NCBI GenBank assembly: GCA_038062915.1
Contig: JBBTWD010000016.1
Location: 27,522-91,521 of the forward strand
Direction: 5' to 3'
Source: Patescibacteria group bacterium
Lineage (GTDB): Bacteria; Patescibacteriota; Microgenomatia; UBA8517
DNA length: 64,000 bases
The position numbers and the translations under genes were made by a program. Shown here piece after piece: positions 44,913-64,000 of this stretch. Position 1 is the first letter of the stretch. Each line of letters begins with the position of its first letter. The notes beneath the pieces are model-generated. The model was not told where the DNA came from. It did no database searches and saw nothing but the letters and a program-made list of their open reading frames with translations.

Positions 44913-45157
44913 ATCTGATTTGTTGCTTCGTCAATCGCAGCTTGAACTTCTGACTGTTTGTATTTTGAAGTATTTTTGCGAATCTTTTCAATTGTTTTAA
45001 AAAGTCTATCTTTTGATTCCTGTCTGTATTTTCGAAATTGTTCAAATTGAATCATAGAAACTAGCACCGCCTTTGGCTTTCCTGCACGTTCGATTATAAA
45101 AGCCATTTGTTTCAAATCAACTTGGTCAAGATAGGTTCCAGGCTGTTTTCTAAAATT
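44909..45157 (-). CDS. Phd/YefM-type antitoxin
   Basis: MNFRKQPGTYLDQVDLKQMAFIIERAGKPKAVLVSMIQFEQF. Stop overlaps the PIN start (ATGA-type coupling). The start may instead be at 45202. Confidence 0.5.
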   Translation of the reverse strand, partial: NFRKQPGTYLDQVDLKQMAFIIERAGKPKAVLVSMIQFEQFRKYRQESKDRLFKTIEKIRKNTSKYKQSEVQAAIDEATNQI

Positions 45158-45591
45158 CATGGCACTAATTGAAGCTGTACCTGAAAGCGAATTGTTTATC
45201 ATAATTATATCAATTATAGTAATTACAACAGTCTTGTCAAGTATCACTTTACATCTTGACTTCCGCAGAGAGAGAGTAATATTTGGGTTGAAATGAACTG
45301 GAAAGAATTTCTCACAACTCCATTTACTGTGGAAAAAGAAGCTACTGGAGTTTATCTTGGTCACGCTATCGACGCTCAAAAGGACTTAGAAGTAATTGAA
45401 GCGGTTCAGTTAGGCGGACATGTACCACCTGGCTTAGATGCTATTAAAAGAAGAGCTGCCATAAACGCAAGAAGAGCCAATGATCAATTAAAACATGAAT
45501 CTCCGATGCCAGGGGTAAAAGACTAGGTTATCTCATTGATCCCCAAACCTATCTCTGTTAAAATCACTCTTGCTCCGGAAGGAGTTTTTGT

Positions 45592-47760
45592 ATGGCGGAA
45601 GTAGCAAAGAAAAAGGCGAGCATTATCATGACGGCCACAAAGGACCGTAATGTTCCTTTGGAAAAGATCCGAAATATTGGGATTATCGCCCACATTGATG
45701 CGGGTAAAACAACAACTACTGAAAGATTATTGTTCGAGACAGGCCGAACGTACAAGCAAGGCTCCGTCGATGATGGAACAACGGTAACTGACTGGATGGC
45801 CCAAGAGAGAGAACGAGGAATTACTATAGTTTCTGCGGCAATTACAGCCTTTTGGGATATTAAAAACACAACTTCAGTTGAATCTGGGCATTATAGAATT
45901 AACTTAATTGACACCCCGGGCCATATTGATTTTACGGCAGAAGTTGAGCGCTCATTACGTGTTTTGGATGGAGCTGTTATGGTTTTTGATGGTAGAACTG
46001 GAGTTGAAAGTCAAAGTGAAACTGTTTGGAGGCAGGCTGATAAATATAATGTTCCCAGAATCTGCGTACTTAATAAATTAAATTTAATTGGAGCTGATTT
46101 TGAAGGATCAATTAAATCAATTCACGAGAGACTTGGTGCCAATGCAGCGCCCGTTATTATTCCAATAGGTCAGGAACATGACCATCGAGGAGTTGTTGAT
46201 TTAGTTAAAATGAGGGCATTTACTTTTAAGGCCATTGAGGATGCAAATTTAACTGAAGGCGAAATCCCTACCGAATTTGTCGAAATGGCCAAGAAATATA
46301 GAGTTCATCTACTTGAAAAAGCCTGTGAGTTTGACGATGAAGCACTGTCAAAGTTTTTAGAAGGTCAGGAAATTGATGAGCTAATTCTTAAAAGGGCGAT
46401 TAGAAAGGGAGTAATTTCTGGTAAATTCTTCCCTATTTTTGGAGGGGACAATAGGACCGCAGAAGCACAACTTTTATTAAATGGAGTTGTTGAATATTTG
46501 CCTTCACCAACAGACCTTCCACCAGTATCTGGAATTGATACTAAAACTGGTGAAAAAACCCAAAGGGAAAGAAAAAGTGACGCACAGCTTAGTGCCTTGG
46601 CTTTTAAAGTAATGACAGATCCACATGTCGGTAGACTTGTTTATATGAGAGTTTATTCAGGTACTCTTAAGGCTGGTCAGGCAGTTTATAATTCAACCAA
46701 ACAAGTTGCCGAAAGAATAGGAAAACTGGTTTTACTTCATGCAGATCAAAGGGAATTAATAGAAGAAGCTTATGCTGGAGAAATTGTGGCTGTTGTTGGA
46801 GTAAAAGATACAACTACTGGAGACACAATTTCTGATTCGGGGAACCCAATTGTTCTTGAGTCAATAAGTTTTCCAGAACCTGTTATCTCGCTTGCAATCG
46901 AACCCGCCACAAAAAGCGATCAAGAAAAAATGGGACTTGCCTTAGGAAAACTTTCTGATGAGGATCCTACATTTAGAATTAAAAGTAATCCCGAAACAGG
47001 GCAAACTATTATCTCCGGAATGGGAGAACTCCAGCTTGAAGTATTGGTTGATCGTATGAAGAGAGAGTTTAATGTGGAGGCTACAACTGGGGCTCCACAA
47101 GTAGCCTATAAAGAGACGATCAAGAAAATTGGTGAAGGAGAAGGAAAATATATAAGACAAACCGGAGGACGTGGACAGTATGGACATGCTTTACTTCGTC
47201 TTGAGCCATTGGGTCGTGGAGAAGGATTTGAATTTAAGAGCGAGATTAAGGGCGGATCTATTCCCCAGGAATACATTTCTCCAATCGAAAAGGGAGTCAA
47301 AGAAAAGATGGAAAATGGGGTTATGGCGGGATTCCCTATGGTTGACATGAGAGTAATAGTTTTCGATGGTAGTTTCCATGACGTAGATTCAAGTGAAATT
47401 GCATTCAAAATTGCAGGTTCGATGGCACTTGAGGACGCTTTCAAAAAATCCGATCCAATACTTCTTGAGCCAGTAATGAAAGTTGAAGTTTCAACTCCAG
47501 ATGAATTTATGGGAGATGTAATCGGGGATCTTTCAAGTAAAAGGGCACAAGTGTCGGGAACTGACAAAAGAGGAACAATGACAGTTGTTAATGCTTTAGC
47601 ACCTTTGGCTGAACTTTCAGGATATGCCACAAAACTTAGATCTCTATCCCAAGGACGAGCAAGCTACTACATGGAGCCAAGCCACTACGAAGAAGTACCT
47701 AGAAACATTGCTGATGCTATTGTTGCCAAGGCCGGTAAGATCACAATGGCAAGAGGGTAG
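45592..47760 (+). CDS. fusA: elongation factor G
   Basis: AHIDAGKTT, DTPGH and NKLN motifs. 722 aa. Confidence 0.97.
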   Translation: MAEVAKKKASIIMTATKDRNVPLEKIRNIGIIAHIDAGKTTTTERLLFETGRTYKQGSVDDGTTVTDWMAQERERGITIVSAAITAFWDIKNTTSVESGHYRINLIDTPGHIDFTAEVERSLRVLDGAVMVFDGRTGVESQSETVWRQADKYNVPRICVLNKLNLIGADFEGSIKSIHERLGANAAPVIIPIGQEHDHRGVVDLVKMRAFTFKAIEDANLTEGEIPTEFVEMAKKYRVHLLEKACEFDDEALSKFLEGQEIDELILKRAIRKGVISGKFFPIFGGDNRTAEAQLLLNGVVEYLPSPTDLPPVSGIDTKTGEKTQRERKSDAQLSALAFKVMTDPHVGRLVYMRVYSGTLKAGQAVYNSTKQVAERIGKLVLLHADQRELIEEAYAGEIVAVVGVKDTTTGDTISDSGNPIVLESISFPEPVISLAIEPATKSDQEKMGLALGKLSDEDPTFRIKSNPETGQTIISGMGELQLEVLVDRMKREFNVEATTGAPQVAYKETIKKIGEGEGKYIRQTGGRGQYGHALLRLEPLGRGEGFEFKSEIKGGSIPQEYISPIEKGVKEKMENGVMAGFPMVDMRVIVFDGSFHDVDSSEIAFKIAGSMALEDAFKKSDPILLEPVMKVEVSTPDEFMGDVIGDLSSKRAQVSGTDKRGTMTVVNALAPLAELSGYATKLRSLSQGRASYYMEPSHYEEVPRNIADAIVAKAGKITMARG

Positions 47761-47770
47761 GATCTTCTAA

Positions 47771-47799
47771 TTGACATAAAAATTGAAAGATAGTATATT
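47771..47799 (+). promoter_or_regulatory. near-consensus sigma70 promoter TTGACA-17-TATATT
   Basis: Lies 11 bp after the fusA stop and drives a 69-aa ORF. Confidence 0.5.
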
Positions 47800-47805
47800 T
47801 ACGAT

Positions 47806-48016
47806 CATGAATCAGGACGATTTAGCCAAAGTTACAGCGGAGGAATTAACCAAACTATTCGAAAATGGTAGGGCGAAATTAACTCGATCTGTTGGCAATT
47901 ATCACGTATTGAGTATAGACAATGAAACAGTTGGAGGCATGTTTCAAAATTCATATGAAGGACCGTATGTCATTAAAGTTGGAGAGCGGATTGTCGGTTT
48001 TACGACTGACCGATAA
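47806..48016 (+). CDS. hypothetical small protein between fusA and tuf
   Basis: MNQDDLAKVTAEELTKLFENGRAKL... The ORF-track start at 47783 lies inside the promoter, so the ATG at 47806 is preferred. Confidence 0.35.
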
Positions 48017-48024
48017 TTTCCCTG

Positions 48025-48054
48025 TTGACAGGCGTGATTAGCCTCGAATATAAT
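48025..48054 (+). promoter_or_regulatory. consensus sigma70 promoter TTGACA-18-TATAAT upstream of tuf
   Basis: Perfect hexamers at 48025-48030 and 48049-48054. Confidence 0.55.
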
Positions 48055-48063
48055 TCAAGTTAT

Positions 48064-48090
48064 CAAGAGCAAGTTTGCTCTTGTTTATTT
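48064..48090 (+). terminator. perfect 9-bp stem hairpin + T-rich tract (terminator of small ORF and/or 5' stem-loop of tuf mRNA)
   Basis: caagagcaa-gt-ttgctcttg followed by tttattt. Confidence 0.4.
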
Positions 48091-48135
48091 GCCCGAAAAT
48101 TTGTATACTAATCGCTAGTAACTAATAACTAACAC

Positions 48136-49326
48136 ATGGCAGACGCAAAACAAAAATTTGATAGAACAAAACCACATGTAAACGTTGGCACCATTGGTCA
48201 TGTTGATCATGGTAAAACCACACTTACTTCAGCTATTACTATGGTTTTGGCCAAGCAAGGGCTTGCTAAAGCTAAAACTTATGCAGATATAGATAGCGCT
48301 CCGGAAGAAAAGGAACGAGGGGTTACAATCAATCTTTCTCATCAAGAGTACGAAACAAAGAAACGTCACTATGCCCACATAGACGCTCCGGGGCACGCAG
48401 ATTACATCAAGAACATGATTACAGGAGCGGCCCAAATGGATGGCGCTATTTTGGTTGTTTCAGCGGCCGATGGACCCATGCCTCAAACTCGAGAACATGT
48501 AATTTTAGCCAGACAGGTTAATGTTCCAGCGCTCGTAGTCTTTCTTAATAAATGTGATACGGTTGACGATCCTGAAATCATTGACTTGGTTGAAGCAGAT
48601 GTCCGAGAGCTTCTAAAGAAGTATGAGTACGAAGGTGACAAAGTCCCTGTAATTAGAGGATCCGCTCTTAAGGCAACCGAGGGGGACGCGGAGGCCGAGA
48701 AAAAGATTCTAGAGCTTATGGAAGCGGTTGATACTTATATCCCAGATCCGGTCCGAGATGTAGATAAACCATTCCTAATGCCTGTTGAGGATGTATTTAC
48801 CATCCAAGGCCGTGGTACGGTTGTCACGGGTAGAGTCGAAAGAGGACAAATCAAAGTTAACGAAGAAATTGAAATTGTTGGGATTAAAGACACTCAAAAG
48901 TCAGTTGTAACCGGGCTTGAGATGTTCAGAAAAACCTTGGACGATGCTATGGCAGGAGATAATGTTGGTGTACTACTTCGCGGTATCGAAAAAGATCAGG
49001 TAGAACGTGGTCAGGTTTTGGCTAAGTCTGGAAGTGTAACTCCTCATACAGAATTTGAAGCTGAAGTGTACATTTTAAGCAAAGAAGAAGGTGGAAGACA
49101 TACGCCATTCTTCACAGGTTACAAACCGCAATTCTATATTAGAACAGCCGATGTTACGGGTGAGGCTACTCTTCCAGAAGGAATTGAAATGGTTATGCCT
49201 GGAGACAATGCTAAGATGAAAGTTAAGTTAATTCAGCCAGTTGCAGCAGAAGAAGGTTTAAGATTTGCAATTCGAGAGGGTGGACATACAGTTGGAGCTG
49301 GTGTAATCACTAAGATTTTGGCCTAA
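48136..49326 (+). CDS. tuf: elongation factor Tu
   Basis: [15 protein letters not shown] and NKCD motifs. 396 aa. Confidence 0.97.
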
Positions 49327-49365
49327 AAACTGCACCATCTGGGTGATGTAAGCACATTAAAGAGA

Positions 49366-49680
49366 ATGGCGACTAATTTGCGCTTGAGAGTTAAACTCAA
49401 AGGCTACGATCATAGGGTCATAGATGAGGCGGCAGGAAAAATTATTGATACCGCTTTATCTTCAGGTGCAAAAATAATTGGGCCCATTCCTCTCCCCACA
49501 AAAAGAACATTAATCCCAGTTGTCCCTTCGACTTCTCGTGGAATAAAGAATGCACAGGAACATTTTGAAATTCTAATCCACAAGCGCTTAATTGATATTC
49601 TTGATCCATCTCCTCGTACTGTTGACTCCCTGGGCAACCTTGATCTTCCAGCTGGAGTTTCTATAGAAATCAAAATGTAA
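49366..49680 (+). CDS. rpsJ: 30S ribosomal protein S10
   Basis: 104 aa. Canonical S10. Confidence 0.95.
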   Translation: MATNLRLRVKLKGYDHRVIDEAAGKIIDTALSSGAKIIGPIPLPTKRTLIPVVPSTSRGIKNAQEHFEILIHKRLIDILDPSPRTVDSLGNLDLPAGVSIEIKM

Positions 49681-49722
49681 ACATTTTGTGAAATTAAGAT
49701 GTAAGTCTGCTATAAGCGTAGC

Positions 49723-49751
49723 TTGCAACGGGCTGCTTAAACCGTTATAAT
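49723..49751 (+). promoter_or_regulatory. sigma70-like promoter TTGCAA-17-TATAAT in rpsJ-rplC spacer
   Basis: Hexamers at 49723-49728 and 49746-49751. Confidence 0.5.
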
Positions 49752-49811
49752 TCCCCCATAACATGAAAGTGGTTAATAGGTTCAACCACAGCAGGTAGTC
49801 TTTGTTAGGAT

Positions 49812-49849
49812 GCTTCTAATTTAGAAGCGCCTACAAGGGCGCTTTTTTT
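49812..49849 (+). terminator. intrinsic terminator with overlapping alternative hairpin (attenuator-like) just upstream of rplC
   Basis: Hairpin A: gcttctaa-t-ttagaagc (49812-49828). Hairpin B: aagcgcc-tacaag-ggcgctt + TTTTTTT (49825-49849). The two share gaagc, so they are mutually exclusive. Confidence 0.6.
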
Positions 49850-49854
49850 GTTTA

Positions 49855-50574
49855 ATGACCATGCTTAATACTGTACTTGGTTCAAAACAGGGTACGAGTC
49901 AAACCTTTTTAGAAGGATTTAGAATTGCTGTGACAAAAATTACAGCTGGGCCATGTGTCGCAACTCAAGTTAAGAAAATGGAACCAGATGGTTACTGGGC
50001 GATCCAATTAGGATTTGGGACCAAAAGAATTAAGAATATAACCAAACCCCAGAAAGGTCACTTCAAAAGTTCAAATTCCACACCAAGATTCGTTAGAGAG
50101 ATTAGATTAGATAAAGAGCCAGAGACAAAAGTCGGAGATGTAATAAAAGTTTCCGACATTTTTGATATTGGGGACATTATAGCCGTAACCGGCACCTCTA
50201 AAGGGAAAGGTTTTGCGGGAGTAGTCAAACGTCACCATTTTCGGGGTGGGCCAAGAACACATGGACAGTCAGACAGGGAGCGTGCACCTGGTTCAATAAG
50301 TCAAGGAACAACCCCAGGGAGGGTCCATAGAGGTAAGAGAATGGCGGGTAGGATGGGTGGAGAAACTGTAACAGTTAAGAATCTACATATAATTTCTATC
50401 GATCCTGAAAAAAATGAACTAGTCGTTTCGGGACCGACCCCAGGAATTCCAGGATCACTTTTAACAATTAGAAAGATTAAAAAAGGAAGCTTGAAAGAAC
50501 TTGAAAAAGAAGTCGTGGCACAAGTGGTTGAAGGAGAGCCAGAGGCAGCTGCAACTAAAGATGTTAAAAATTAA
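49855..50574 (+). CDS. rplC: 50S ribosomal protein L3
   Basis: Canonical L3. Confidence 0.95.
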   Translation: MTMLNTVLGSKQGTSQTFLEGFRIAVTKITAGPCVATQVKKMEPDGYWAIQLGFGTKRIKNITKPQKGHFKSSNSTPRFVREIRLDKEPETKVGDVIKVSDIFDIGDIIAVTGTSKGKGFAGVVKRHHFRGGPRTHGQSDRERAPGSISQGTTPGRVHRGKRMAGRMGGETVTVKNLHIISIDPEKNELVVSGPTPGIPGSLLTIRKIKKGSLKELEKEVVAQVVEGEPEAAATKDVKN

Positions 50575-51163
50575 TACATATTCTATAAAAGGAACAAAAT
50601 TGGCAGACTATAGTTTACCTAAAGAGTTTGATATTAAGCCAAATTTAAACTTATTGGCTCAAGGCATCAGGGTCTATGAGGATATGTCCCATACCGGATT
50701 AAGAAAAACAAAAACAAGGGCTGAAATCAATAGAACTGGGAAAAAAGTTTATAAACAAAAAGGTACAGGTGGGGCAAGACATGGAAGTAGAAGGGCGCCA
50801 ATCTATGTTGGTGGTGGTATAGCACATGGTCCAAGGCCGATAAGAAGAATGCTATCACTTCCCGCCAAAATGAAGCTAAAAGCTAAAACGATGGCAATTT
50901 CATTTAAAGTACAAAAAAAGGAAGCCGTTTTACTTGATGGGGTCGGAAAAATTAAGAAAACAAATGAAGCTGGTAATGTTGTTAATAAACTTGGGAGAGT
51001 TAGTGGGGTTACAAGGTTTACATTTGCATTACTTAAGCACAATATTGCCTTTAGAAACATTGAAAAAGTAAATATTGTTCCGTTTAAAGATCTAAATGCT
51101 TGGCAAATATTAACAGGTGGACTTTTGGTAATCGATAAAGAAGTTTTTAACAAAAAATCATGA
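50561..51163 (+). CDS. rplD: 50S ribosomal protein L4
   Basis: Start taken at MLKINTYSIKG, an internal Met of the track ORF. Confidence 0.9.
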   Translation: MLKINTYSIKGTKLADYSLPKEFDIKPNLNLLAQGIRVYEDMSHTGLRKTKTRAEINRTGKKVYKQKGTGGARHGSRRAPIYVGGGIAHGPRPIRRMLSLPAKMKLKAKTMAISFKVQKKEAVLLDGVGKIKKTNEAGNVVNKLGRVSGVTRFTFALLKHNIAFRNIEKVNIVPFKDLNAWQILTGGLLVIDKEVFNKKS

Positions 51164-51441
51164 TCCAGCCAATTTTTACAGAAAAAACAACAAGGCTTGC
51201 TAAAGAAGGGAAATATACTTTTTTAGTTTCTGCCCGAGACGTTAAAAGTATGCTTAAAAGTGAAATTGCCAGCCTTTTTAAGGTTCATGTTAAAAGTATT
51301 AGAATACTTAAGACTGGAGGCGAGGCTAAAAGAAATTCAAAGGGAATAAAGGTCACTAAATTAGCTAGTAAAAAAGCGATAGTGACACTTAAAGCAGGCG
51401 AAAAAATCGACTTATTTGACGAGAAGAAGAAAAAGAAATAA
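51160..51441 (+). CDS. rplW: 50S ribosomal protein L23
   Basis: 93 aa L23. Confidence 0.9.
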   Translation: MIQPIFTEKTTRLAKEGKYTFLVSARDVKSMLKSEIASLFKVHVKSIRILKTGGEAKRNSKGIKVTKLASKKAIVTLKAGEKIDLFDEKKKKK

Positions 51442-51445
51442 GAAT

Positions 51446-52192
51446 ATGATTAAAAAATTACAAACAATATTATCTAAAAAAGCAGGGAGAAGAAATGGAA
51501 AGGTGACAGTTCGTCACCAGGGTGGACGAGAAAAAAGATTTTTGCGAGAAATTGATTTTAAGAGAGATAAAAAAGATGTTTGGGGTAGGGTTGAAGGTAT
51601 TGAGTATGATCCAAACAGAAACTCAAGTATCGCTAGGATTTTATACGAAGATGGAGACAGAAGGTATATTTTAGCTCCAATAGGGTTTAAAATTGGAGAT
51701 AGGGTAATTAGTTCCAACACTGCTCCGGTTGAGCCTGGGAATAATCTTGCTTTAGCGAGTATTCCAGTGGGGACACAGGTTCACAATATTGAGCTTCGCC
51801 CAGGCAAAGGTGGCCAACTTGTTAAAAGCGCAGGTAGCGCTGCAGTTATTTTTGGAAAAGAGGAATTGTGGGTTTTAATTAAGCTACCATCGGGTGAGAT
51901 TAGAAGATTTTACCCACACTGTTTTGCCACAATAGGTCAGGTGGGAAATATTGAAGCTAAAGAAAGAGTTTGGCGCAAGGCTGGAATAAAACGTCATATG
52001 GGGATTAGGCCAACTGTAAGAGGGGTCGCGATGAATCCAGATTCTCATCCTCACGGAGGAGGAGAGGGTAGAAGCGGAATCGGTATGAAAGGTCCTAAGA
52101 CAGTTTATGGTCGAAGCGCAGTGGGTAAGACTAGACTAAAGAAAAAATATAGTAGTAAATTTATCGTTTCCGGACGTGGAGGGAAAAGATGA
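51446..52192 (+). CDS. rplB: 50S ribosomal protein L2
   Basis: Start taken at MIKKLQT. Shorter than typical L2. Confidence 0.9.
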
Positions 52193-52470
52193 GCAGAAGC
52201 ACTAAAAAGGGACCATATGTAGACATCAATCTGACTAAAAAGGTCGGGTGTGGCATGGGAACAAAAGACGCTCCTATAAAAACATGGGCAAGGGCAAGTC
52301 AAATTGCTCCGGATTTTGTGGGTAAATATTTTCAAGTTCATAACGGACGAATCTTTATAGACGTTTTTGTAACCGAAGACATGGTGGGACATAGATTGGG
52401 CGAATTTTCTCCGACCAGAACATTTAGGGGTCATGGGGAAATAGTAAAGAGAACATTAGATAAGACCTAA
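52189..52470 (+). CDS. rpsS: 30S ribosomal protein S19
   Basis: 93 aa S19. Confidence 0.95.
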
Positions 52471-52471
52471 A

Positions 52472-52870
52472 ATGGAAAAGGATTTTATTTCAACACAAAA
52501 ATATCTAATAGTCGGGCCAAGAAAGGTCAGGGATGTAGTTGCATTAATTAAAAAACTTAAACCATTGGACGCCATAGCAAAATTAGAATTTATTAATAAA
52601 AAGTCATCTGATTTTTTGATTAAAGTCATTAAAACCGCAATTGCTCAAGCTAAGGTTGCAGGGGTTACCGATACTGACTTAATTTTTAAAGAAATTCAAA
52701 TTGGGGAAGGACCAAGGCTTAAGAGGGGGCGTCCTGCTTCAAGAGGAAGATGGCATCCTTACAAAAAGAGAATGTGTCACGTTAGAGTCGTATTGACAAC
52801 GCGCGAAGTACCAAAAGTAGAAAAAGTATCAAAAGCCAAAAAAACAAAGAAAGATGTCACACAAAGTTAA
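52472..52870 (+). CDS. rplV: 50S ribosomal protein L22
   Basis: 132 aa L22. Confidence 0.9.
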   Translation: MEKDFISTQKYLIVGPRKVRDVVALIKKLKPLDAIAKLEFINKKSSDFLIKVIKTAIAQAKVAGVTDTDLIFKEIQIGEGPRLKRGRPASRGRWHPYKKRMCHVRVVLTTREVPKVEKVSKAKKTKKDVTQS

Positions 52871-53486
52871 CCCAGTCGGTATAAGAATCGGAACATTTTT
52901 GCCTTGGAAATCAAGGTGGTTTGCCAATAATACGAATTTCAAAGACTTTCTAATTGAAGACATAAAGATTAGAAAAGGTTTAATGGAAAAACTTAAGCTC
53001 GCTGGAGTTACATCAGTCGAGATCGAAAGATTGCCAAAAAGTATGGTAATAAATATCTTTGTTAGCCGACCAGGGGTAGTTATCGGCAGGGGTGGCGCTG
53101 GAATTGAAGATGTTAAAAAATTAGTATTAAAGTTTGCCAAAAATCCAAGTCACAAAATTGATATAAGAATTAATGAAATAAAAAGTCCAGAACTTTCGGC
53201 GTATTTAGTTTTGGGTAGAATTATATCGGAGCTTGAAAGAAGAATTCCACATAGGCGTGTTGTTCAAAAAACAATGGAACGAGTTATGTCTGCTGGAGCT
53301 TTGGGCGTTAAAGTCACACTAGGAGGACGGATTAATGGGGCTGAAATTGGTAGGGTTGAAAAATTTCATCAAGGATCAGTACCAAGCCAAACCTTGAGAG
53401 AAGAAATAGATTATGCCCAAATGCCAGCCCTACTTAAAAGAGGCTATGTAGGTGTAAAAGTTTGGATTCATAAAAAGAAAGATTAA
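52854..53486 (+). CDS. rpsC: 30S ribosomal protein S3
   Basis: KH domain and S3 C-terminal domain. 210 aa. Confidence 0.95.
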   Translation: MSHKVNPVGIRIGTFLPWKSRWFANNTNFKDFLIEDIKIRKGLMEKLKLAGVTSVEIERLPKSMVINIFVSRPGVVIGRGGAGIEDVKKLVLKFAKNPSHKIDIRINEIKSPELSAYLVLGRIISELERRIPHRRVVQKTMERVMSAGALGVKVTLGGRINGAEIGRVEKFHQGSVPSQTLREEIDYAQMPALLKRGYVGVKVWIHKKKD

Positions 53487-53506
53487 TCACGATTTCTAAT
53501 CGAACA

Positions 53507-53920
53507 ATGTTACAACCAAAAAGAAGGACATATATAAAAGATTTTAGGGGCAGGAGAAGGGGGGTCGCATCCAGGGGGAGCGCTATTGCCTTTGGTGAAT
53601 ATGCTCTAAAGGCTCAAGAAGTTGCTTGGGTGACAACAGCTCAAATCGAAGCCGCACGTCGGGCCATAACACATGCTTTAAGAAAAGGTGGACGTGTTTG
53701 GATAAGAATCTTTCCAGATAAGCCGATTTCAGCTCGTCCTGCAGGAAAAAGAATGGGTGGCGGAAAAGGCGATATCTCAACATATGTTGCAGTTGTTAGA
53801 CCTGGAGTGATTCTTTTTGAGGTAGCTGGAGCCGAGAAAAGTATAGTTGTCGATGCATTTAACAAAGCATCTGCTAAACTACCCATTGCGACAAAAATTA
53901 TAAGCCGAGAGGAAAACTAA
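53507..53920 (+). CDS. rplP: 50S ribosomal protein L16
   Basis: 137 aa L16. Confidence 0.95.
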   Translation: MLQPKRRTYIKDFRGRRRGVASRGSAIAFGEYALKAQEVAWVTTAQIEAARRAITHALRKGGRVWIRIFPDKPISARPAGKRMGGGKGDISTYVAVVRPGVILFEVAGAEKSIVVDAFNKASAKLPIATKIISREEN

Positions 53921-53921
53921 G

Positions 53922-54071
53922 ATGAAAAAGAAAGATTTATTAGATTATCGAACAAAAGAAATTAAAGATTTAATAAAGCTTGTGGTTGAAAAGAAACTGG
54001 TGCCATCTAAAAATTCTAGACGTGAAGTTGCACAAATTTTAACAATTATTAAAGAAAAACAGCTCAAATGA
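53922..54071 (+). CDS. rpmC: 50S ribosomal protein L29 (49 aa; below ORF-track threshold)
   Basis: MKKKDLLDYRTKEIKDLIKLVVEKKLV... The TGA stop overlaps the rpsQ ATG. Confidence 0.8.
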   Translation: MKKKDLLDYRTKEIKDLIKLVVEKKLVPSKNSRREVAQILTIIKEKQLK

Positions 54072-54286
54072 AAATATTTACGGGTCAAGTAATCGCATTA
54101 AAAAATGAAAAAACAGCTACTGTGTCAGTCGCTAGGGTTACAGTGCATCCTTTATATAAGAAAAGATTAAGAAGGCTAAAGAAATATCAAGTCCATGATG
54201 AAATTGAAACAAAAATTGGGGACAAGGTCAGTTTTATTGCCAGTAAACCCTACAGTAAGACGAAGAAGTGGAGGATTATCAAATGA
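54068..54286 (+). CDS. rpsQ: 30S ribosomal protein S17
   Basis: 72 aa S17. Confidence 0.9.
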   Translation: MKIFTGQVIALKNEKTATVSVARVTVHPLYKKRLRRLKKYQVHDEIETKIGDKVSFIASKPYSKTKKWRIIK

Positions 54287-54648
54287 TACAGTTGAGATCA
54301 ATATTAAAACCAGCAGACAATAGTGGCGCCAAAAGGCTTATGGTAATAGGATTACCCGGGAAAATAGGCAAATTCGCGTCATTGGGTGATGTTGTCTTAT
54401 GTGTTACTCAAGGAGCTGATTCGGCCGGGGCGGTACTGGACCATGAAAAAGTATCAGTTTTAATTGTTAGAACGAGGAAAGAGGTAGGTAGGAAAGATGG
54501 AACTTATGTTCGGTTTGATGATAACGCAGGTGTAGTTATCGATAAACAGGGGCTTCCTCGTGGAACGCGTATATTTGGCCCAGTTGCCCGTGAAGTCAAA
54601 GAAGTTGGATACAATAAAATCGCTTCGTTAGCAAGGGAGGTTGTATGA
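54283..54648 (+). CDS. rplN: 50S ribosomal protein L14
   Basis: Start at MIQLRSILKPADNSGAK. Confidence 0.95.
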   Translation: MIQLRSILKPADNSGAKRLMVIGLPGKIGKFASLGDVVLCVTQGADSAGAVLDHEKVSVLIVRTRKEVGRKDGTYVRFDDNAGVVIDKQGLPRGTRIFGPVAREVKEVGYNKIASLAREVV

Positions 54649-54953
54649 TCAAATTTAAATTGGGCGACAATGTAAGGATTATGACTGGAAAAGACAAAGG
54701 CAGAGAGGGAAAAATTGAGAAAATTTTTCCTAAAGAGGCCAAAGTTTTGATCCCTGGAATGAATATTTACAAGAAACATGTTAAAGGTGTGGGGGAAGTT
54801 AAGGGTGGAATTTACGACTTACCACGCCCCATTGGATTGGGTAAAATAGCTTTGGTTTGTCCCAAATGCAAAAAGATTACAAGAGTTGGTTTTCGAATGG
54901 CAGGTAGTCAAAAAGTTAGAATATGTAAGAAGTGTAAAAAGGAAATATCATGA
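54645..54953 (+). CDS. rplX: 50S ribosomal protein L24
   Basis: KOW domain. 102 aa. Confidence 0.9.
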   Translation: MIKFKLGDNVRIMTGKDKGREGKIEKIFPKEAKVLIPGMNIYKKHVKGVGEVKGGIYDLPRPIGLGKIALVCPKCKKITRVGFRMAGSQKVRICKKCKKEIS

Positions 54954-55468
54954 GCAGACTTAAAGACAAATATATAAAAGGGTTTAATCCTAAAGAAGAT
55001 CTTTCATTTCCAAAGCTTGTGAAGGTTACCTTAAATTTAGGTATAGGCAATATTGCTAAAAATGCCCCTGCTCTTGAGGTTTTGAAAAAAGACATCGCAG
55101 CAATTTCGGGCCAGATGCCATCAATTAGACCAGCTAAGGTTTCTATTGCAAGTTTTGGAATAAGGGCTGGAATGCCAGTTGGATTATCAGTGACCTTAAG
55201 AGGAGAAAGAATGTATTCTTTCTTGGACCGTCTTTTTTCCATAGTTCTCCCTCGGCTTAGAGATTTTAGAGGAATTCCAACTAAATCGTTTGATAGCTTT
55301 GGCAACTATACTTTAGGTTTAGCCGAACATACAGTTTTTCCAGAAATTGATACTGCAAAAGGAAATAACCCGCATGGCATGGAAATTACAATTGTGACAA
55401 CTGCAAAAAATAAAGAAGACGCTAGAAAACTTTTAGAACTTTTAGGTTGTCCCTTTGAAAAACCATGA
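54950..55468 (+). CDS. rplE: 50S ribosomal protein L5
   Basis: 172 aa L5. Confidence 0.95.
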
Positions 55469-55650
55469 GTACAGTAGCTAAAGAAGTCCGAGAGACTAAA
55501 AAATTAAAATATAAAGGCCGATATAGAAATAGATGTAGAATTTGTGGCAGAGGCCGTGGATATCTAAGGAAATTTGGTCTATGTCGTCTATGTTTCCGTG
55601 AACACGCATTAAAAGGGGAAGTCCCAGGCGTTAGAAAGGCATCATGGTAG
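55465..55650 (+). CDS. rpsN: 30S ribosomal protein S14 type Z (zinc-binding)
   Basis: 61 aa. [20 protein letters not shown]. Confidence 0.9.
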
Positions 55651-55997
55651 CCGACTTTTTAATTCGAATAAAAAATGCTGTTATGGCAAAAAATAAAGAA
55701 GTGAAAATTGTATCAAACAAGCATGTTTTGGCTGTGGCCAATTCTCTTAAAAAATTAGGTTTTTTGGAGAAAGTTGAGGCTGATAAGGTGACACTTTCCT
55801 TTATGGACAAAAAACCGATTCTTATGGATATAAAACTTGTATCAAAACCTGGGCGAAGAATTTATATTGGAGCTCGTGAGTTGGAAAAAAGAAAGAAGCC
55901 ATCAATTCTTTTGATATCTACTCCTATAGGGATAATTTCGTCTAAACAAGCTTTGAAAAGTAGGATTGGAGGGGAGGTATTAGCTGAAGTACTATAA
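55644..55997 (+). CDS. rpsH: 30S ribosomal protein S8
   Basis: 117 aa S8. Confidence 0.9.
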
Positions 55998-56015
55998 TTT
56001 CAGCGAAATTAAATC

Positions 56016-56567
56016 ATGAGTAAAATAGGCAAACAACCGGTATTAATTCCAGAGGGTGTAAAAGTAGAACTAAATGATAAATTGGTTAGGATTACTGGTC
56101 CCAAAGGAACCCTAGAGAGAAAGTTACCTCGTGCGATTGAGGTGGTTTTCAAGGATGGCCAGATTGATGTTAAAAGGAAGTCAAATTCGAAAGTAGCTAC
56201 AAGCTTACATGGAACAATCCGTTCACTAATAAACAATATGGTTAAGGGTGTAACAGAGGGCTTTATTCGTCAGCTAGAGCTTATTGGAACCGGTTTTAGA
56301 GCAGAGGTTGTGGGTAGTGATATATCGCTTATTGTGGGTTATTCACACCCTGTTAAAATTCAAGCTCCCGAAGGAGTTAACTTTAAGGTTGAAAAAATGA
56401 TAATTACAGTTAGCGGATTTGATAAAGAGGTGGTTGGTCAAGTAGCTGCCAATGTAAGAGCTGTAAGGCCACCCGAGCCATATAAAGGAAAAGGAATTAA
56501 ATATGTGGAAGAGGTTATAAGAAGAAAGCCTGGTAAAGCAGCAGCAGCTAAAACCACAGTAGCCTAA
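56016..56567 (+). CDS. rplF: 50S ribosomal protein L6
   Basis: 183 aa L6. Confidence 0.95.
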
Positions 56568-56571
56568 TATT

Positions 56572-56886
56572 ATGGAAATAAAAAGAAAGAGATATATACA
56601 AAGGAAAAGAAGGGTACGCTCAAGGATCGAAGGATCACCCGAGAGGCCCAGGCTTTCTGTTTTTAGATCTAATAAATATGTTTATGCTCAAATAATCGAT
56701 GACATTAAGGGTGTAACTTTGGTGTCGGCTCATGGAATTGATCCCAAAAGTGTAGGTGAGGAAATTGCCAAAAAGGCAATAAAAAAGAAAATAGAAAGCG
56801 TTGTTTTTGATAGAGGAGGTTTTAAGTATCATGGAAGGGTAATGGCTGTAGCTGTTGCAGCAAGAGAGGGGGGACTTAAATTATGA
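56572..56886 (+). CDS. rplR: 50S ribosomal protein L18
   Basis: 104 aa L18. Confidence 0.9.
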
Positions 56887-57377
56887 TGAGAAGACAATAT
56901 AATAACCAGAATCAGTTTGCCTTTAGTGAATTTGAAGAAACAGTTGTTCAAATAAATAGAATTTCTAAAAAAACCAAAGGAGGAAATCAAATCCGTTTTT
57001 CTGCGCTTGTTGTGGTTGGAGATAAAAAAGGAAAGGTGGGTGTGGGACTGGCTAAGGCCACGGACGTTCGAAATGCAATTAGGAAGGCAATCGAGGCCGC
57101 TAAAAGAAAAATGATTAAAGTCCCGCTTGCTGGTACTACTGTACCTTATTCCGTAAATGAGAAATTTTCAGCAGCTAGAGTACTTGTTAAGCCAGCTCCT
57201 CCTGGAAGCGGTATTATTGCCGGAGGGCCAATGAGGGTAGTTTTGGAGGCGGCTGGAATAAGAGACGTGGTAGGTAAGATATTGGGTACAAAAAATAAAA
57301 TTTCTAATGTTTATGCAACCCTAAAAGCGCTATCATCAATCTATGCAATTGCCAAAAGTCGTAACAAAATCGAATAA
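56883..57377 (+). CDS. rpsE: 30S ribosomal protein S5
   Basis: 164 aa S5. Confidence 0.95.
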
Positions 57378-57759
57378 AAGAGTTGGCCGCGGAATAGGAT
57401 CCGGAAAAGGAGGCCATACTTCTGGTCGTGGACAAAAAGGTCAAAGAAGTAGGGGGAAAATCGGAATTTTATTTGAAGGAGTAAAAATGAAGAAGTCGCT
57501 TATTAAAAGACTTCCTCTTTCTCGTGGTAAAGGAAAATTTAAATCAAAGAATGGGCCAATTGTAGTCAACATGGAAGTCTTAAATATTATGCCTACTGGG
57601 TCAATTGTTAATATCGAGAGCTTGGTTAAGGCAGGAATTGTAGATAGTAAGGATGCTAAAAAATATGGAGTTAAAATATTAGGTAAGGGAACACTTACTA
57701 AAAAATTAAAAATAGAACTTCCCATGTCCAAGTCAGTTGCCAAAAGACTAGCTAAATGA
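57343..57759 (+). CDS. rplO: 50S ribosomal protein L15 (directly after S5; no L30 gene)
   Basis: [23 protein letters not shown]. Confidence 0.9.
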   Translation: MQLPKVVTKSNKRVGRGIGSGKGGHTSGRGQKGQRSRGKIGILFEGVKMKKSLIKRLPLSRGKGKFKSKNGPIVVNMEVLNIMPTGSIVNIESLVKAGIVDSKDAKKYGVKILGKGTLTKKLKIELPMSKSVAKRLAK

Positions 57760-59039
57760 TTCAATCTATTGCCCATTTCTTTTTAAAAGTAGTAAAGTCC
57801 CCCTCTATTAGGAGAAAACTGTTTATTACTGGAATAATTTTGATGGTTTTTCGCTTGGCGGCCCATATCCCAGCTGCGGGGATAGATAGAACTACACTTT
57901 CAGCGCTTTTTGCAGGAAGCCCGCTTCTATCACTACTCGATGTTTTTTCTGGGGGAACACTGGCCAATTTTTCTGTACTAGCATTGGGTCTAAACCCTTA
58001 TATTAATGCTTCTATTATTTTTCAACTTTTAGGCTACGTAGTTCCAAGTATTGAAGCGCTTCAAAAAGAGGGAGAGTATGGTCAGGAAAAAATAAATCAA
58101 TACACAAGACTTTTAAGTGTCCCCTTGGCGGCACTTCAAGCGTTTGGAATGTATGCTCTCCTTAAGGGTCAGAATATCATTCCAAATTTATCAACAATTT
58201 CACTCATTTCTTTGATTTTGACAATGGTTGCGGGTACCGTTTTTGCCGTTTGGTTGGGAGAGTTGATCACAGAGTATGGATTTAAAAATGGGATATCCAT
58301 CCTAATATTTACGGGGATAGTAGCAAGGCTCCCCGTTACCCTTGGGCAATCTGCTAGTATCATCGGGTCGGCAGATGTAATTAAGGTGGTTATATTTTTG
58401 GTTGCAGCCATAATCGTTGTGGGGCTAATTGTTTTTATGGGTGAAGCAGCTCGCCAAATCCCCATTCAATATGCCAGAAAGAGAACTGCTGGTGGCCTTC
58501 CATCTTCTTCTTATTTGCCTTTAAGATTAAACCAGGCAGGAGTGATACCAATTATATTTGCGGTATCTTTGGTTTTACTACCATCACTTTTGGGCCAATT
58601 TTTGGGAAATTCAGCCAATCCTAATATTGCAAATTTTGCTAGAGGTATTAGTACTGCATTTGATCCCCAAGGAGTTGTCTATAATCTTATATATTTCCTT
58701 TTGGTTTTTGGTTTCACATACTTCTATACTGCTATAGTTTTTAATCCAGATAAAATATCTGAAAATTTACAAAAAGGAGGTGGATTTGTTCCTGGAATCC
58801 GGCCGGGTCCCGAAACTGCTAAATATCTTTCTTTCGTGTTATCTAGAATTACTGTGGTTGGAGGGGTATTTTTGGGGCTTGTTGCGGTTTTGCCATCATT
58901 TTTCCAGAATTTTATTGGTGTAGCTAATTTAGCAATAGGAGGGACTGGGATTTTGATTGTGGTTTCTGTGGTTCTTGAGATGATTCGGGAAATGGAAGGT
59001 GAACTTGTTATGGGTAGCTACGACAAGTTAATTAGATGA
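57756..59039 (+). CDS. secY: preprotein translocase subunit SecY
   Basis: 427 aa with 10 TM segments. Confidence 0.95.
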   Translation: MIQSIAHFFLKVVKSPSIRRKLFITGIILMVFRLAAHIPAAGIDRTTLSALFAGSPLLSLLDVFSGGTLANFSVLALGLNPYINASIIFQLLGYVVPSIEALQKEGEYGQEKINQYTRLLSVPLAALQAFGMYALLKGQNIIPNLSTISLISLILTMVAGTVFAVWLGELITEYGFKNGISILIFTGIVARLPVTLGQSASIIGSADVIKVVIFLVAAIIVVGLIVFMGEAARQIPIQYARKRTAGGLPSSSYLPLRLNQAGVIPIIFAVSLVLLPSLLGQFLGNSANPNIANFARGISTAFDPQGVVYNLIYFLLVFGFTYFYTAIVFNPDKISENLQKGGGFVPGIRPGPETAKYLSFVLSRITVVGGVFLGLVAVLPSFFQNFIGVANLAIGGTGILIVVSVVLEMIREMEGELVMGSYDKLIR

Positions 59040-59587
59040 ACTTATTGATATTAGGCCCCCAAGGATCGGGTAAAGGAACGCAAGCTAAAATATTAGTAGA
59101 GAAATTTGGTTTTTTTTATCTGGAATCTGGTGAATTTTTGAGAGAAATTGCAGTAAGTAATGATGTCTTAAAAAAAATGATGGATGAGGGACTGTTTGTT
59201 CCAGATAATGAAATGGTTTCCTATATTACGGCCTTCTTAGATTCAAAGGGAATTTATGGCAATATACTTTTCGACGGTTTTCCAAGAAATATTGAGCAGT
59301 ATAAATTTCTTAAAAATTGGCTAAATGATAAACAAGTAGTGATTGATCTTGTTTTAGTCTTAAAAATAGACGAAGAAGAGTCGGTCGAAAGGTTAATTTT
59401 AAGAGGGAGAGAAGATGACAATCTAGACTCAATTAAAAAAAGGCTATCTCTTTATACTCAAAAAACTGAAATTTTAATTCAAGAATTAAAGAAAGAAATT
59501 AAAGTGGTTGAAGTTGATGGAGAAAGATCGGTTGAAGCGATTTCTGGTGATTTAATTAAGATTATCAATGATATCAATCAAAACTGA
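59036..59587 (+). CDS. adk: adenylate kinase
   Basis: GPQGSGKGTQ P-loop. 183 aa. Confidence 0.9.
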   Translation: MNLLILGPQGSGKGTQAKILVEKFGFFYLESGEFLREIAVSNDVLKKMMDEGLFVPDNEMVSYITAFLDSKGIYGNILFDGFPRNIEQYKFLKNWLNDKQVVIDLVLVLKIDEEESVERLILRGREDDNLDSIKKRLSLYTQKTEILIQELKKEIKVVEVDGERSVEAISGDLIKIINDINQN

Positions 59588-60338
59588 CGAAGAAATAAAA
59601 ATCATGGCCGAGGGTGGGGCTATACTTGCTCGTGTCAAAACCAAACTCGGCAATACCATAAAAGAAGGAGTAACTGCGATGGAAATTGAGAAATTGGCGA
59701 ATAAGCTGATTTCAGACGAAGGTGCCGAGGCTTCTTTCAAAAAGGTTCCGGGATATCATTGGGCAACGTGTATCAATGTTAATGAAGGTTTGGTCCATGG
59801 CATACCCAATCCAAGTGTCGTTTTTAAAAAAGGTGATTTAGTAAGCGTGGATGTTGGACTTTTTTTTAAAGGTTTTCATACTGATACCTCAATCTCGGTT
59901 GGAATCGATCTGTCAGATGATAGTAAAAAGTTTTTAGAGGTGGGCAAAAAGGCACTAAAAGAGGCAATTGCTAAAGCAAGAGTGGGTAATCATATTTATG
60001 ATATTTCAGAAAGGATAGAGAAAATAGTAACTGAAGCAGGGTATTGTCCTATTAGAGCTTTAGTGGGGCACGGAGTGGGAAGAGAGTTGCATGAAGAGCC
60101 ACAGATTCCATGTTTCCTGCCTGCCGGCAGGCATGGCCTGCCTGGTAAGATCGAAGAAAGTCCAGAGATTGTTGAGGGGATGATTTTAGCTATTGAGGTC
60201 ATGTATGCTTTGGGAAGCGATAAAGTACATATTTTAGAAGACGGGTGGACAATAGCCATGCGTGATGATAAAATATCAGCACTTTTCGAGGAGACTGTCG
60301 CTGTTACCCTAAAGGGTCCTAAAGTATTGACGGTCTAG
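59568..60338 (+). CDS. map: methionine aminopeptidase type I
   Basis: Pita-bread fold motifs. Confidence 0.9.
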   Translation: MISIKTDEEIKIMAEGGAILARVKTKLGNTIKEGVTAMEIEKLANKLISDEGAEASFKKVPGYHWATCINVNEGLVHGIPNPSVVFKKGDLVSVDVGLFFKGFHTDTSISVGIDLSDDSKKFLEVGKKALKEAIAKARVGNHIYDISERIEKIVTEAGYCPIRALVGHGVGRELHEEPQIPCFLPAGRHGLPGKIEESPEIVEGMILAIEVMYALGSDKVHILEDGWTIAMRDDKISALFEETVAVTLKGPKVLTV

Positions 60339-60352
60339 TCGCCGTTTTTTGT

Positions 60353-60568
60353 ATGAAGCAAAATATTGTTACAGAGATTGACGGGGTTATTACCCAGGCA
60401 TTACCTAACACAATGTTTAGAGTGGAACTGACTGACGGTAGATTAATCTTAGCTACTCTTAAAGGTAAGATGAGAAAGGCTTATGTTAGGATTTTTCCAG
60501 GAGATAAAATCAAGATCGAAATGACACCGTACGACGAAGATAGAGGAAGAATAGTATTTAAGTATTAA
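60353..60568 (+). CDS. infA: translation initiation factor IF-1
   Basis: 71 aa S1-like. Confidence 0.9.
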   Translation: MKQNIVTEIDGVITQALPNTMFRVELTDGRLILATLKGKMRKAYVRIFPGDKIKIEMTPYDEDRGRIVFKY

Positions 60569-60619
60569 AATGAATTATAAGCATAGCTTAGCAAAATATT
60601 ATTATAAGAAAGGAATTTT

Positions 60620-60733
60620 GTGAAAGTTTCAAGTTCAATAAAACCAAGGTGTAAAGACTGTAAATATGTCAAAAGAGGTGGGGTTTTATATATCATTTGT
60701 AGAAACCCCAGGCATAAACAGCGTCAAGGATAA
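60620..60733 (+). CDS. rpmJ: 50S ribosomal protein L36 (GTG start; below ORF-track threshold)
   Basis: (M)[36 protein letters not shown]. Confidence 0.8.
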
Positions 60734-60741
60734 TTTAAATT

Positions 60742-61155
60742 ATGTCAAGAATTGTAGGAGTTGAATTACAAGATAATTGGAAAGTAGATTTTGCTCTAAC
60801 GAGAATTAAGGGTATTGGTTGGAGCTTGGCTAAAAAACTGATAGAAGAAGCCAAGATTGATAGCAGTAAGAGGGTTTCTGATTTAACTGCAGATGATGTC
60901 GCTAAGATTTCTAGCTTACTTGAAAAGCATCCAACAGAGGGAGAGCTTTTTAGAGTAGTTAGGGGGAACATTCAAAGACTTCAAGCGATTGGATCATATA
61001 GGGGTTTGAGGCACACAAAGAATCTGCCAGCACGAGGACAAAGGACTAAAACAAATGCGCGCACAAAAAGGGGTAAAAGAAAGACAGTAGGAGCGTTCAA
61101 AAAAGAAGTTTTAAGTAAGATGCAGACGGGAGAGAAAACAGATGCTAAAAAGTAA
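60742..61155 (+). CDS. rpsM: 30S ribosomal protein S13
   Basis: 137 aa S13. Confidence 0.95.
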   Translation: MSRIVGVELQDNWKVDFALTRIKGIGWSLAKKLIEEAKIDSSKRVSDLTADDVAKISSLLEKHPTEGELFRVVRGNIQRLQAIGSYRGLRHTKNLPARGQRTKTNARTKRGKRKTVGAFKKEVLSKMQTGEKTDAKK

Positions 61156-61528: not shown

Positions 61529-61553
61529 GCGAAGCTTAAGACTTTGTCAAAAA

Positions 61554-62150: not shown

Positions 62151-62165
62151 TTATAAAATACCCGA

Positions 62166-63829: not shown

Positions 63830-64000
63830 GAACTATACATACGCAATAGGAAGAAGAAAAGAGTCTAGTGCTCGAGTTAGGCTTTTTAAAGGTAAAGGAG
63901 AAAATCAAATTAATTCTAAACCTGCTAATGAGTACTTTCAACAAGAAGTGGCCAAAAAAGTTTTAGGTAAACCTTTTGAGGTTACAGAAACTTCTGATAA
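63813..64000 (+). CDS. rpsI: 30S ribosomal protein S9, 5' part (continues past window end)
   Basis: MKVNSKNYTYAIGRRKESSARVRLF... Confidence 0.85.
   Translation, partial: MKVNSKNYTYAIGRRKESSARVRLFKGKGENQINSKPANEYFQQEVAKKVLGKPFEVTETSD

Follow-up and report, generated by a model that had tools for sequence, protein, structure and literature searches.

A probable transcription attenuator with a conserved short open reading frame upstream of rplC in a Woesebacteria-type Patescibacterium

Introduction

Ribosomal protein operons are textbook cases of autogenous control, and the leaders known to exert it are narrowly distributed. That of the E. coli S10 operon works by L4-stabilised pausing together with NusA, and has neither a covarying antiterminator nor a leader open reading frame (ORF). 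In another kind of leader, the B. subtilis bmrCD and vmlR attenuators, the state of a ribosome on a leader ORF chooses the fold of the RNA; the peptide itself is largely unimportant and stalling leads to read-through. Bacteria of the candidate phyla radiation (CPR) have tiny genomes, few regulators and unusual ribosomes, and we know of nothing about how they balance ribosome synthesis. Here we describe the spacer between rpsJ and rplC, the genes for ribosomal proteins S10 and L3, in a 64-kilobase (kb) stretch of DNA (the window) from a Woesebacteria-type Patescibacterium, an uncultured member of the CPR. From its sequence and that of its relatives, this spacer is very probably a promoter followed by the 5' leader of the rplC operon, acting as a transcription attenuator, and the leader opens with a conserved mini-ORF.

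By our comparison, the closest mechanistic relatives of this element would be the B. subtilis rplJL and infC leaders and, for the geometry of its ORF, the trp and pheST attenuators. Eckert and Weinberg (2020) described a ribosomal-leader candidate, L4-Archaeoglobi, directly 5' of rplC-rplD-rplW-rplB (PMC7247131), and in their survey an L4 candidate is found upstream of rplC only in Archaeoglobi, with none for the CPR (PMC7247131). L4-Archaeoglobi is archaeal and differs from the window leader in its motif, with no terminator switch reported (PMC7247131), and it has no Rfam match to the window. Our full-text literature searches for leader-peptide or attenuator control of ribosomal protein operons in Patescibacteria did not find any. 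The element is a regulatory element of a known kind in a lineage where nothing similar has been described.

It is also a well-supported cis-regulatory RNA with a terminator/antiterminator switch that is missing from RNA family libraries. A search with Rfam 15 at the gathering threshold identified no match in the 64-kb window or in 18 related loci, and at E-values up to 10 the region 49600-49900 matched only small RNAs (sRNAs) that contain a terminator, all at least 27 bits below their thresholds. The region upstream of E. coli rpsJ (L185 472-708) likewise had no Rfam 15 match even at E-values up to 1; Rfam is without a model of the E. coli S10 leader, and its negative result is therefore uninformative on membership in that family.

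A terminator/antiterminator switch in the rpsJ-rplC spacer

The regulated operon, rplC-rplD-rplW-rplB-rpsS and onward, begins with the rplC ORF (49855-50574, + strand). Its first codons are ATG ACC ATG, and the start homologous to that of relatives is 49861, not 49855; the spacer measures 174 nucleotides (nt) to the first ATG and 180 nt to the second. A consensus scan located the rplC operon promoter at 49723-49751 on the + strand (-35 TTGCAA at 49723-49728, a 17-nt spacer, and -10 TATAAT at 49746-49751), where the original prediction had placed it. It matches 10 of 12 consensus positions and is conserved in relatives, CTTGC[GA]-17-TATAAT being found at the same place in the 19 whose sequence covers the promoter region; most relatives, unlike the window itself, also have a TGn before the -10 box. 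As judged from the -10 box, transcription would start near 49758 and yield a leader transcript of ~92 nt (49758-49849, + strand), the 3' end of which would lie in the U-tract if terminated.

The intrinsic terminator (49823-49849, + strand) has a 10-bp stem (49823-49832 with 49837-49846; -14.0 kcal/mol) with the GC core GCGCC/GGCGC and the loop ACAA, followed by T7 (49843-49849), the first four T of which also close the stem, and it ends 5-8 nt 5' of the first rplC ATG. In DNA this AT-rich, consensus matches to promoters and terminators prove nothing alone, as their counts in 45000-64000 are not above those of shuffles (36 promoter-like sites found vs 44.5 expected, and 17 terminator-like sites vs 15.9). 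In the same scan the spacer terminator took the top rank, and only two strict terminator-like hairpins occur on both strands of the 64 kb, this one and one upstream of tuf. In structure prediction, one of the checks proposed with the original prediction, the 97-nt leader folds better than all of 200 dinucleotide shuffles (z = -4.2).

The spacer had further been described as holding a terminator hairpin with T7 and an overlapping hairpin A, only one of which could form. We found all of these, and hairpin A and the terminator are mutually exclusive because the bases GAAGCG are common to both. The terminator and its alternative are real, but the competitor is not hairpin A alone. The minimum-free-energy fold of the leader is one long hairpin, 49798-49840, rather than hairpin A beside the terminator, and this antiterminator of ~43 nt (+ strand) contains hairpin A (49811-49829, + strand; 49811-49818 with 49822-49829) as its inner helix. 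In the outer helix 49798-49809 (GTCTTTGTTAGG) pairs with 49830-49840; here GUCUUUGUUAGG pairs with the end of the terminator 5' arm, the terminator loop and the first bases of the 3' arm. Upstream of the antiterminator, and inside the mini-ORF, lies a further hairpin, P1 (49769-49789, + strand), formed by GTGGTT (49769-49774) and AACCAC (49784-49789) around a 9-nt loop. A terminator-like site on the minus strand, 49789-49769, was discarded as merely the complement of P1.

MAFFT misaligned the 5' arm of the terminator, and we therefore counted pairs in a covariance-model alignment of 15 leaders; as such an alignment leans towards the modelled structure, an alignment-free permutation test was added. 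In the alignment, 14 of the 17 antiterminator pairs show changes on both sides, with 93% of cells paired. For the whole structure (P1 and antiterminator) 0 of 500 shuffles reached the observed values, sliding the partner strand left at most 60% of cells paired, and RNAalifold on the same alignment returned P1 and the antiterminator as its own consensus. In the alignment-free test of 21 leaders, the 22 nt after P1 paired with their own terminator loop at -6.66 kcal/mol and with the loops of other leaders at -4.99 +/- 0.39 kcal/mol, a value as low as that observed being reached by 1 of 20,000 permutations. Covariation, another of the checks proposed with the original prediction, is clearly present for the antiterminator.

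P1 is 95% paired in 15 relatives but almost invariant (GUGGUU/AACCAC), with little covariation. The terminator core GCGCC/GGCGC is also near-invariant in the close subgroup, without covariation there, as is expected of bases that are each paired in either of the two alternative folds; the terminator stem does change, with compensation, in distant leaders (GGUGCC/GGCACC, GCGAC/GUCGC and CCCGC/GCGGG). Across leaders the antiterminator has energies of -10.7 to -18.7 kcal/mol and the terminator of -7.1 to -17.0 kcal/mol, and either of them is the minimum-free-energy fold depending on the relative.

The closeness of these energies is a point in favour of a leader with no dedicated sensor, a view to which we give a low probability. 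Such a leader would be a partial kinetic attenuator in which RNA polymerase speed, nucleoside triphosphates or NusA/NusG decide the outcome, the read-through fraction would be fixed or growth-rate-dependent, and the mini-ORF would be incidental or protect the transcript. This would suit a leader of only ~92 nt without a domain of the size that binds a ligand, and genome-reduced CPR bacteria in general, with their few regulators. It is the conserved P1, the linker that follows it and the conserved frame of the ORF that speak against it, as these indicate a selected input module.

Some leaders have the material for another pairing as well. The mini-ORFs of L002, L086, L090, L065 and L007 contain a GGAGG(UG) that resembles a Shine-Dalgarno sequence, and the terminator loops of L002 and of a second subgroup of leaders are CCUCC-like and could pair with it (-11.2 kcal/mol in L002). 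This GGAGG/CCUCC complementarity may represent a second or alternative antiterminator pairing.

Linkage of the leader to rplC

Related loci were collected by a genome scan with L3, a metagenome scan with an alignment of L3 N-termini (at least eight useful loci) and look-ups of twelve contigs with L3 homologues. The collection comprises 23 distinct leaders of the Woesebacteria clade, with L3 identities down to ~50-60%, and further leaders of more distant Microgenomates. The arrangement is kept in the 23 Woesebacteria-like leaders, and every leader collected lies directly 5' of rplC and comprises a promoter, a leader of ~90-100 nt and a GC-rich terminator with a U-tract. At L169, L175, L181 and L183 rplC is unlinked from rpsJ, the upstream gene being a GT87 or His_Phos_1 gene, and the promoter and leader are kept; as the leader stays 5' of rplC without an adjacent rpsJ, the element belongs to the rplC operon. 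At L001 (2332-2670) and L170 (582-920) a 112-aa ORF with a faint Nfu_N match stands between rpsJ and the rplC leader. The room between the U-tract and rplC is 8-60 nt, too short for a promoter. As no promoter fits 3' of the U-tract, rplC would be expressed only by read-through of the terminator, which makes the leader an attenuator by construction.

Two covariance models built from the leader, R1 and R2, each had a single significant match in the window, at 49757-49859 (129 and 101 bits, respectively), and one site per related locus, always 5' of rplC. In all we searched 186 sources, with R2 or, in the case of 14 close relatives, with R1; 85 loci, mostly non-CPR metagenome contigs, were left out. 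Neither model found anything significant in the searched non-CPR loci (L003-L099, mostly from other phyla), and neither significantly reaches the second subgroup or other Microgenomates lineages; the wider Microgenomates family is linked by architecture only, not by a statistical model. A weak R2 match in the window at 36705-36786 on the minus strand (18 bits, E = 1.4) is most likely due to chance.

The same searches bear on whether the element might be an independent sRNA gene, i.e., a stand-alone promoter, 92-nt transcript and terminator placed before rplC by chance, which we consider very improbable. It is indeed built like an sRNA gene, the Rfam matches, weak and at chance level, were all to terminator-containing sRNAs, and terminated attenuator RNAs can act in trans, as is reported for rnTrpL (PMC7968998). 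However, the element is always directly 5' of rplC and nowhere else in the 186 searched sources, there is no second rplC promoter at loci with a divergent or unrelated upstream gene, and a covarying antiterminator would be purposeless in a stand-alone sRNA.

The original prediction had likened the spacer to the E. coli S10 leader with its L4-mediated attenuation, relocated to lie between S10 and L3. The two are alike as leaders of a large operon containing rplC and rplD, with an intrinsic terminator shortly before the first regulated gene and, presumptively in the window, negative transcriptional control. The E. coli leader lies upstream of rpsJ, whereas the window element lies downstream of rpsJ, directly 5' of rplC, and has its own promoter, and the E. 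coli rpsJ-rplC spacer is only 32 nt in comparison to 174 nt here. A search of the E. coli rpsJ upstream region with R2, with filters off, gave 5.2 bits and an E-value of 7, i.e., no similarity in sequence or structure to the E. coli leader with its hairpins HD and HE. With no such similarity, and with a leader that follows rplC rather than rpsJ, the idea of a relocated E. coli-type leader had to be given up; neither is there anything at the locus that is specific to L4. The contrast that had been drawn with the usual contiguous S10 operon was overstated, since S10-L3 spacers of 90-250 nt occur in many lineages. In Bacteroidota/Ignavibacteria loci (L012, L014, L017-L019, L022, L023 and others) they are ~100-150 nt long, those of L012 and L014 being GC-rich without a terminator, and these spacers may be a different, undescribed leader; in Chloroflexota loci they are mostly 10-60 nt.

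A mini-ORF at the 5' end of the leader

Every leader has a mini-ORF of 7-19 codons at its 5' start, a conserved feature that the original prediction had missed and whose stop codon, in the window's subgroup, touches the 5' strand of the antiterminator. In the window it occupies 49763-49798 on the + strand (ATG AAA GTG GTT AAT AGG TTC AAC CAC AGC AGG TAG, for a predicted peptide MKVVNRFNHSR), with no Shine-Dalgarno sequence and a predicted 5' untranslated region (UTR) of ~5 nt. About half of the genes in the window, including tuf, rpsJ and rplC, are also without a Shine-Dalgarno sequence, and an ORF that lacks one is therefore not odd here.

For the geometry of the mini-ORF we used the 16 leaders of the window's subgroup (subgroup 1). 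In all 16 the ATG lies 11-15 nt 3' of the -10 box, which would leave a 5' UTR of ~4-8 nt, and the 3' arm of P1 (CCAC) is always 27 or 30 nt away from the ATG: GTGGTT follows the ATG either directly or after 3 nt, and the P1 loop has 9 or 12 nt. Only 3' of the mini-ORF stop do lengths in this subgroup differ by 2, 4 or 5 nt. Between the ATG and CCAC there are no stops in frame 0, compared to 12 in frame +1 and 11 in frame +2 (11 parsed of 13 sampled leaders). A conserved UAG stands before UCUU in 9 of the 10 leaders with this position in frame, as against none of the 6 with it out of frame (Fisher point probability 0.0009, kinship ignored). All six of the latter have another in-frame stop, located from 5 nt before UCUU to 10 nt past its first base; a stop near the 5' strand of the antiterminator is found in 16 of 16 leaders. 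Antiterminator pairing in the RNAalifold consensus begins with the G of the UAG. L181 and L183, two leaders obtained only once the hypothesis was in place, also have the ORF (MRVVMIDISHD and MVVNMLVNHG, respectively, each followed by a stop). Taken together, these comparisons argue that the start codon, frame and stop position of the mini-ORF are conserved and that its frame is under selection.

Outside subgroup 1 the start codon is ATG or GTG. Leaders of distant Microgenomates that are unrelated in sequence (L007/L026, L065, L005 and L015) have a leading ATG ORF of 11-17 codons, the end of which overlaps the loop-pairing strand in L007/L026, L065 and L015; in L005 the stop is 7 nt before that strand. 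A shuffled leader would contain such an ORF with a probability of 0.07-0.18 per lineage.

In its layout the window leader resembles the trp, his, leu, pheA and pheST attenuators, in which a 5' ORF likewise has its stop immediately ahead of the upstream antiterminator strand and an alternative intrinsic terminator precedes the first structural gene. It differs from them in having neither regulatory codons nor a conserved peptide, and the regulated genes encode ribosomal proteins rather than amino-acid enzymes. There are no codon runs in the peptides, and the recurrent V-V and N/S-H residues are a consequence of the P1 arms; an attenuator of the amino-acid type was ruled out on the absence of regulatory codons from the mini-ORFs. 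Also unlike trp-type leaders, that of the window lacks a Shine-Dalgarno sequence, has a very short 5' UTR and has no 1:2-type hairpin overlapping the antiterminator, and without such a hairpin the absence of translation should give read-through and not super-attenuation.

Candidate sensors of the switch

We tentatively propose, at somewhat less than an even chance, that the switch is set by ribosome-mediated attenuation through translation of the predicted mini-ORF. RNA polymerase would transcribe ~92 nt of RNA that folds in two exclusive ways. By default the antiterminator (49798-49840) would form and polymerase would read through into rplC, because the antiterminator is the earlier of the two to be transcribed and at least matches the terminator in stability; a regulatory input should therefore block the antiterminator. 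In the repressed state GUCUUUGUUAGG, which runs from the G of the UAG stop, would be blocked, the terminator (49823-49846) with its U7 would form, and transcription would stop just before rplC. When its A site holds the stop codon, a ribosome would cover the next ~9 nt, which are the antiterminator 5' strand. Efficient translation of the mini-ORF, as when many ribosomes are free, would thus lead to termination, and scarce or stalled ribosomes to read-through and more ribosomal protein synthesis. P1, lying 0-3 nt downstream of the start codon, would act as a competitor of initiation and tune the sensitivity, and perhaps also make the polymerase pause. As there are no regulatory codons, the signal would be the ease of mini-ORF translation itself, i.e., free or active ribosome capacity, and the outcome would be negative feedback on ribosomal protein synthesis. 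The transcription start, the translation of the mini-ORF, the direction of the response and its physiological meaning are what we infer from the leader sequences.

On this basis it is quite possible, though less likely than not, that a ribosome-sensing attenuator with a nearly leaderless mini-ORF lacking a Shine-Dalgarno sequence governs the main ribosomal protein operon in Woesebacteria and probably across Microgenomates. If so, ribosomal protein synthesis in these bacteria would be fed back from free or active ribosome capacity rather than from free ribosomal protein, and attenuation would be relieved by ribosome stalling, e.g., by antibiotics targeting L3, L4 or L22. It would be ribosome-mediated attenuation acting on the ribosome's own genes, with a direct read-out of translational capacity, of which our literature searches found no described example. 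The bmrCD and vmlR attenuators control resistance genes, whereas the window leader would control the operon of L3, L4 and L22 and is conserved with core ribosome biogenesis.

The other candidate for the sensor is a ribosomal protein under autogenous control (L4 by analogy with E. coli, with L3 or another protein possible), which we regard as a serious but rather doubtful alternative. A protein in excess over rRNA would bind P1 and the linker after it (...AACCAC-GAUAGGUAG-UCUUCG) and occlude the 5' strand of the antiterminator, leaving the terminator to form. L10(L12)4 and L20 act in this way on the B. subtilis rplJL and infC leaders, and nearly all known leaders of ribosomal protein operons are sensed by a ribosomal protein, a prior that favours this explanation over a ribosome as the sensor. 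The position before rplC-rplD is moreover where an L4-type leader would be expected, as with the candidate L4 leader upstream of rplC in Archaeoglobi (PMC7247131). If a ribosomal protein is the sensor, the CPR would have in this element its first leader of the L4 or L3 type, invented independently of E. coli.

Several features of the leaders also weigh against a translating ribosome as the sensor, and some of them favour a protein. P1 and the linker are conserved in sequence and not by covariation, as is typical of a protein-binding site, and the scant variation in P1 suggests that it is bound in a sequence-specific manner, for example by a protein. In the second subgroup (L086, L088, L090 and L091) the ORF, GTG GAG NNN GTT CGT NNN NNN TAA, stops 12-16 nt before the antiterminator strand, a gap that is too far for simple occlusion by a ribosome. 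In L001 the homologous ATG is absent, and another ORF, of 19 codons, runs from an ATG 6 nt after the -10 box into P1, where it ends. The peptide of the mini-ORF is not conserved, a start without a Shine-Dalgarno sequence behind a 5' UTR of 4-8 nt is an unproven initiation context, and transcripts arriving from tuf-rpsJ would carry the mini-ORF internally. The ORF statistics, finally, draw on a small number of independent lineages, with criteria that were set once the data had been viewed.

The B. subtilis rplJL leader is one of the closest known systems. Like the window leader it has an exclusive antiterminator and terminator, read-through as its default (predicted for the window) and a short leader ORF, translated in B. 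subtilis (PMC4538822), and it combines a protein-driven switch with a leader peptide (PMC4538822), a combination that would accommodate a mini-ORF beside a protein sensor. Its sensor, however, is a protein-bound anti-antiterminator (PMC4538822), and in the window leader we found no such structure. Its peptide is encoded 3' of the terminator and counteracts Rho (PMC4538822), whereas the window mini-ORF lies upstream and ends at the antiterminator.

A protein sensor also leaves unexplained the conserved ATG, frame and antiterminator-adjacent stop of the mini-ORF, and the restriction of triplet indels to the region upstream of the stop. When we compared the 5' halves of five leaders with the 16S and 23S rRNA, similarity was not above that of shuffles, a weak test in that the rRNA was that of E. 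coli and not of the host. We found no motif in common with the E. coli S10 leader, and distant Microgenomates leaders have the architecture and the ORF with no common P1-like motif. In view of the conserved mini-ORF and of its stop codon, which touches the antiterminator, we consider ribosome-mediated attenuation to be at least as likely as sensing of a ribosomal protein.

Control resembling that of boxA was also considered, with NusB and NusE (S10, encoded by the gene next upstream) binding AGUCUU(U/C)GAAGG and either blocking the antiterminator or loading an antitermination complex. The segment UCUUUGAAA of L084 and L001 resembles the boxA of rRNA operons, and boxA is reported upstream of rpsJ and other translation genes in gamma-proteobacteria (PMC5725501). 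By eye, the alignment agrees with the published consensus GYTCTTTAANA (PMC5725501) only in TCTT(T), TCTTCG being the sequence in most relatives, with the reservation that the consensus of this phylum may differ. Changes in the segment accompany changes in the terminator loop, which is what a base-paired strand would show and a fixed protein site would not, and the element regulates rplC and not rpsJ. We rejected the boxA reading of AGUCUUYG on its failure against the published consensus and on the covariation of the segment as a paired strand, and attach only a very small probability to control of this kind.

Gene layout and other observations

The gene order at the locus is fusA, a 77-aa ORF, tuf, rpsJ, the spacer, rplC, rplD, rplW, rplB, rpsS and onward. 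The rpsJ ORF (49366-49680, + strand) encodes an S10 with 74-82% identity in translation to those of L001 and L002, and no terminator was found 3' of it. The 237-aa L3 that starts at 49861 has an identical entry in a public collection, its closest named relatives being 'Candidatus Woesebacteria' L3 proteins, and the genome scan with L3 identified a Patescibacteria metagenome-assembled genome and a Woesebacteria chromosome as nearest to the window. A search of the 64 kb for tRNA and tmRNA genes gave none. A 65-aa ORF on the minus strand (49588-49785) overlaps rpsJ and the rplC operon promoter. The 77-aa ORF between fusA and tuf (47783-48016, with an alternative ATG at 47808) lies 3' of a promoter-like TTGACA-17-TATATT (region 47771-48016).

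Upstream of tuf there is a perfect TTGACA-18-TATAAT (48025-48054), followed, a few bases past the predicted transcription start, by a hairpin (48064-48083) and a U-rich run (region 48025-48135), without a mini-ORF. The promoter recurs upstream of tuf in L001 (~421-495) with a 5' hairpin of different stem sequence and a U-run. This tuf 5' hairpin may be a 5' stabiliser or a second attenuator.

Directly after the U-tract of the rplC leader, GTTTAATGAC (49850-49859, + strand), which contains the first rplC ATG at 49855, is nearly invariant in alignments. The corresponding GUUUAAUGRC is near-invariant in the window, L001, L084, L085, L165, L170 and L175, also in those among them whose L3 start (MINT...) is located 30-60 nt further 3'. 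In relatives with such a downstream L3 start it opens small post-terminator ORFs, that of L001 overlapping the L3 start by ATGA, and these ORFs recall the leader peptide that B. subtilis rplJL encodes after its terminator.

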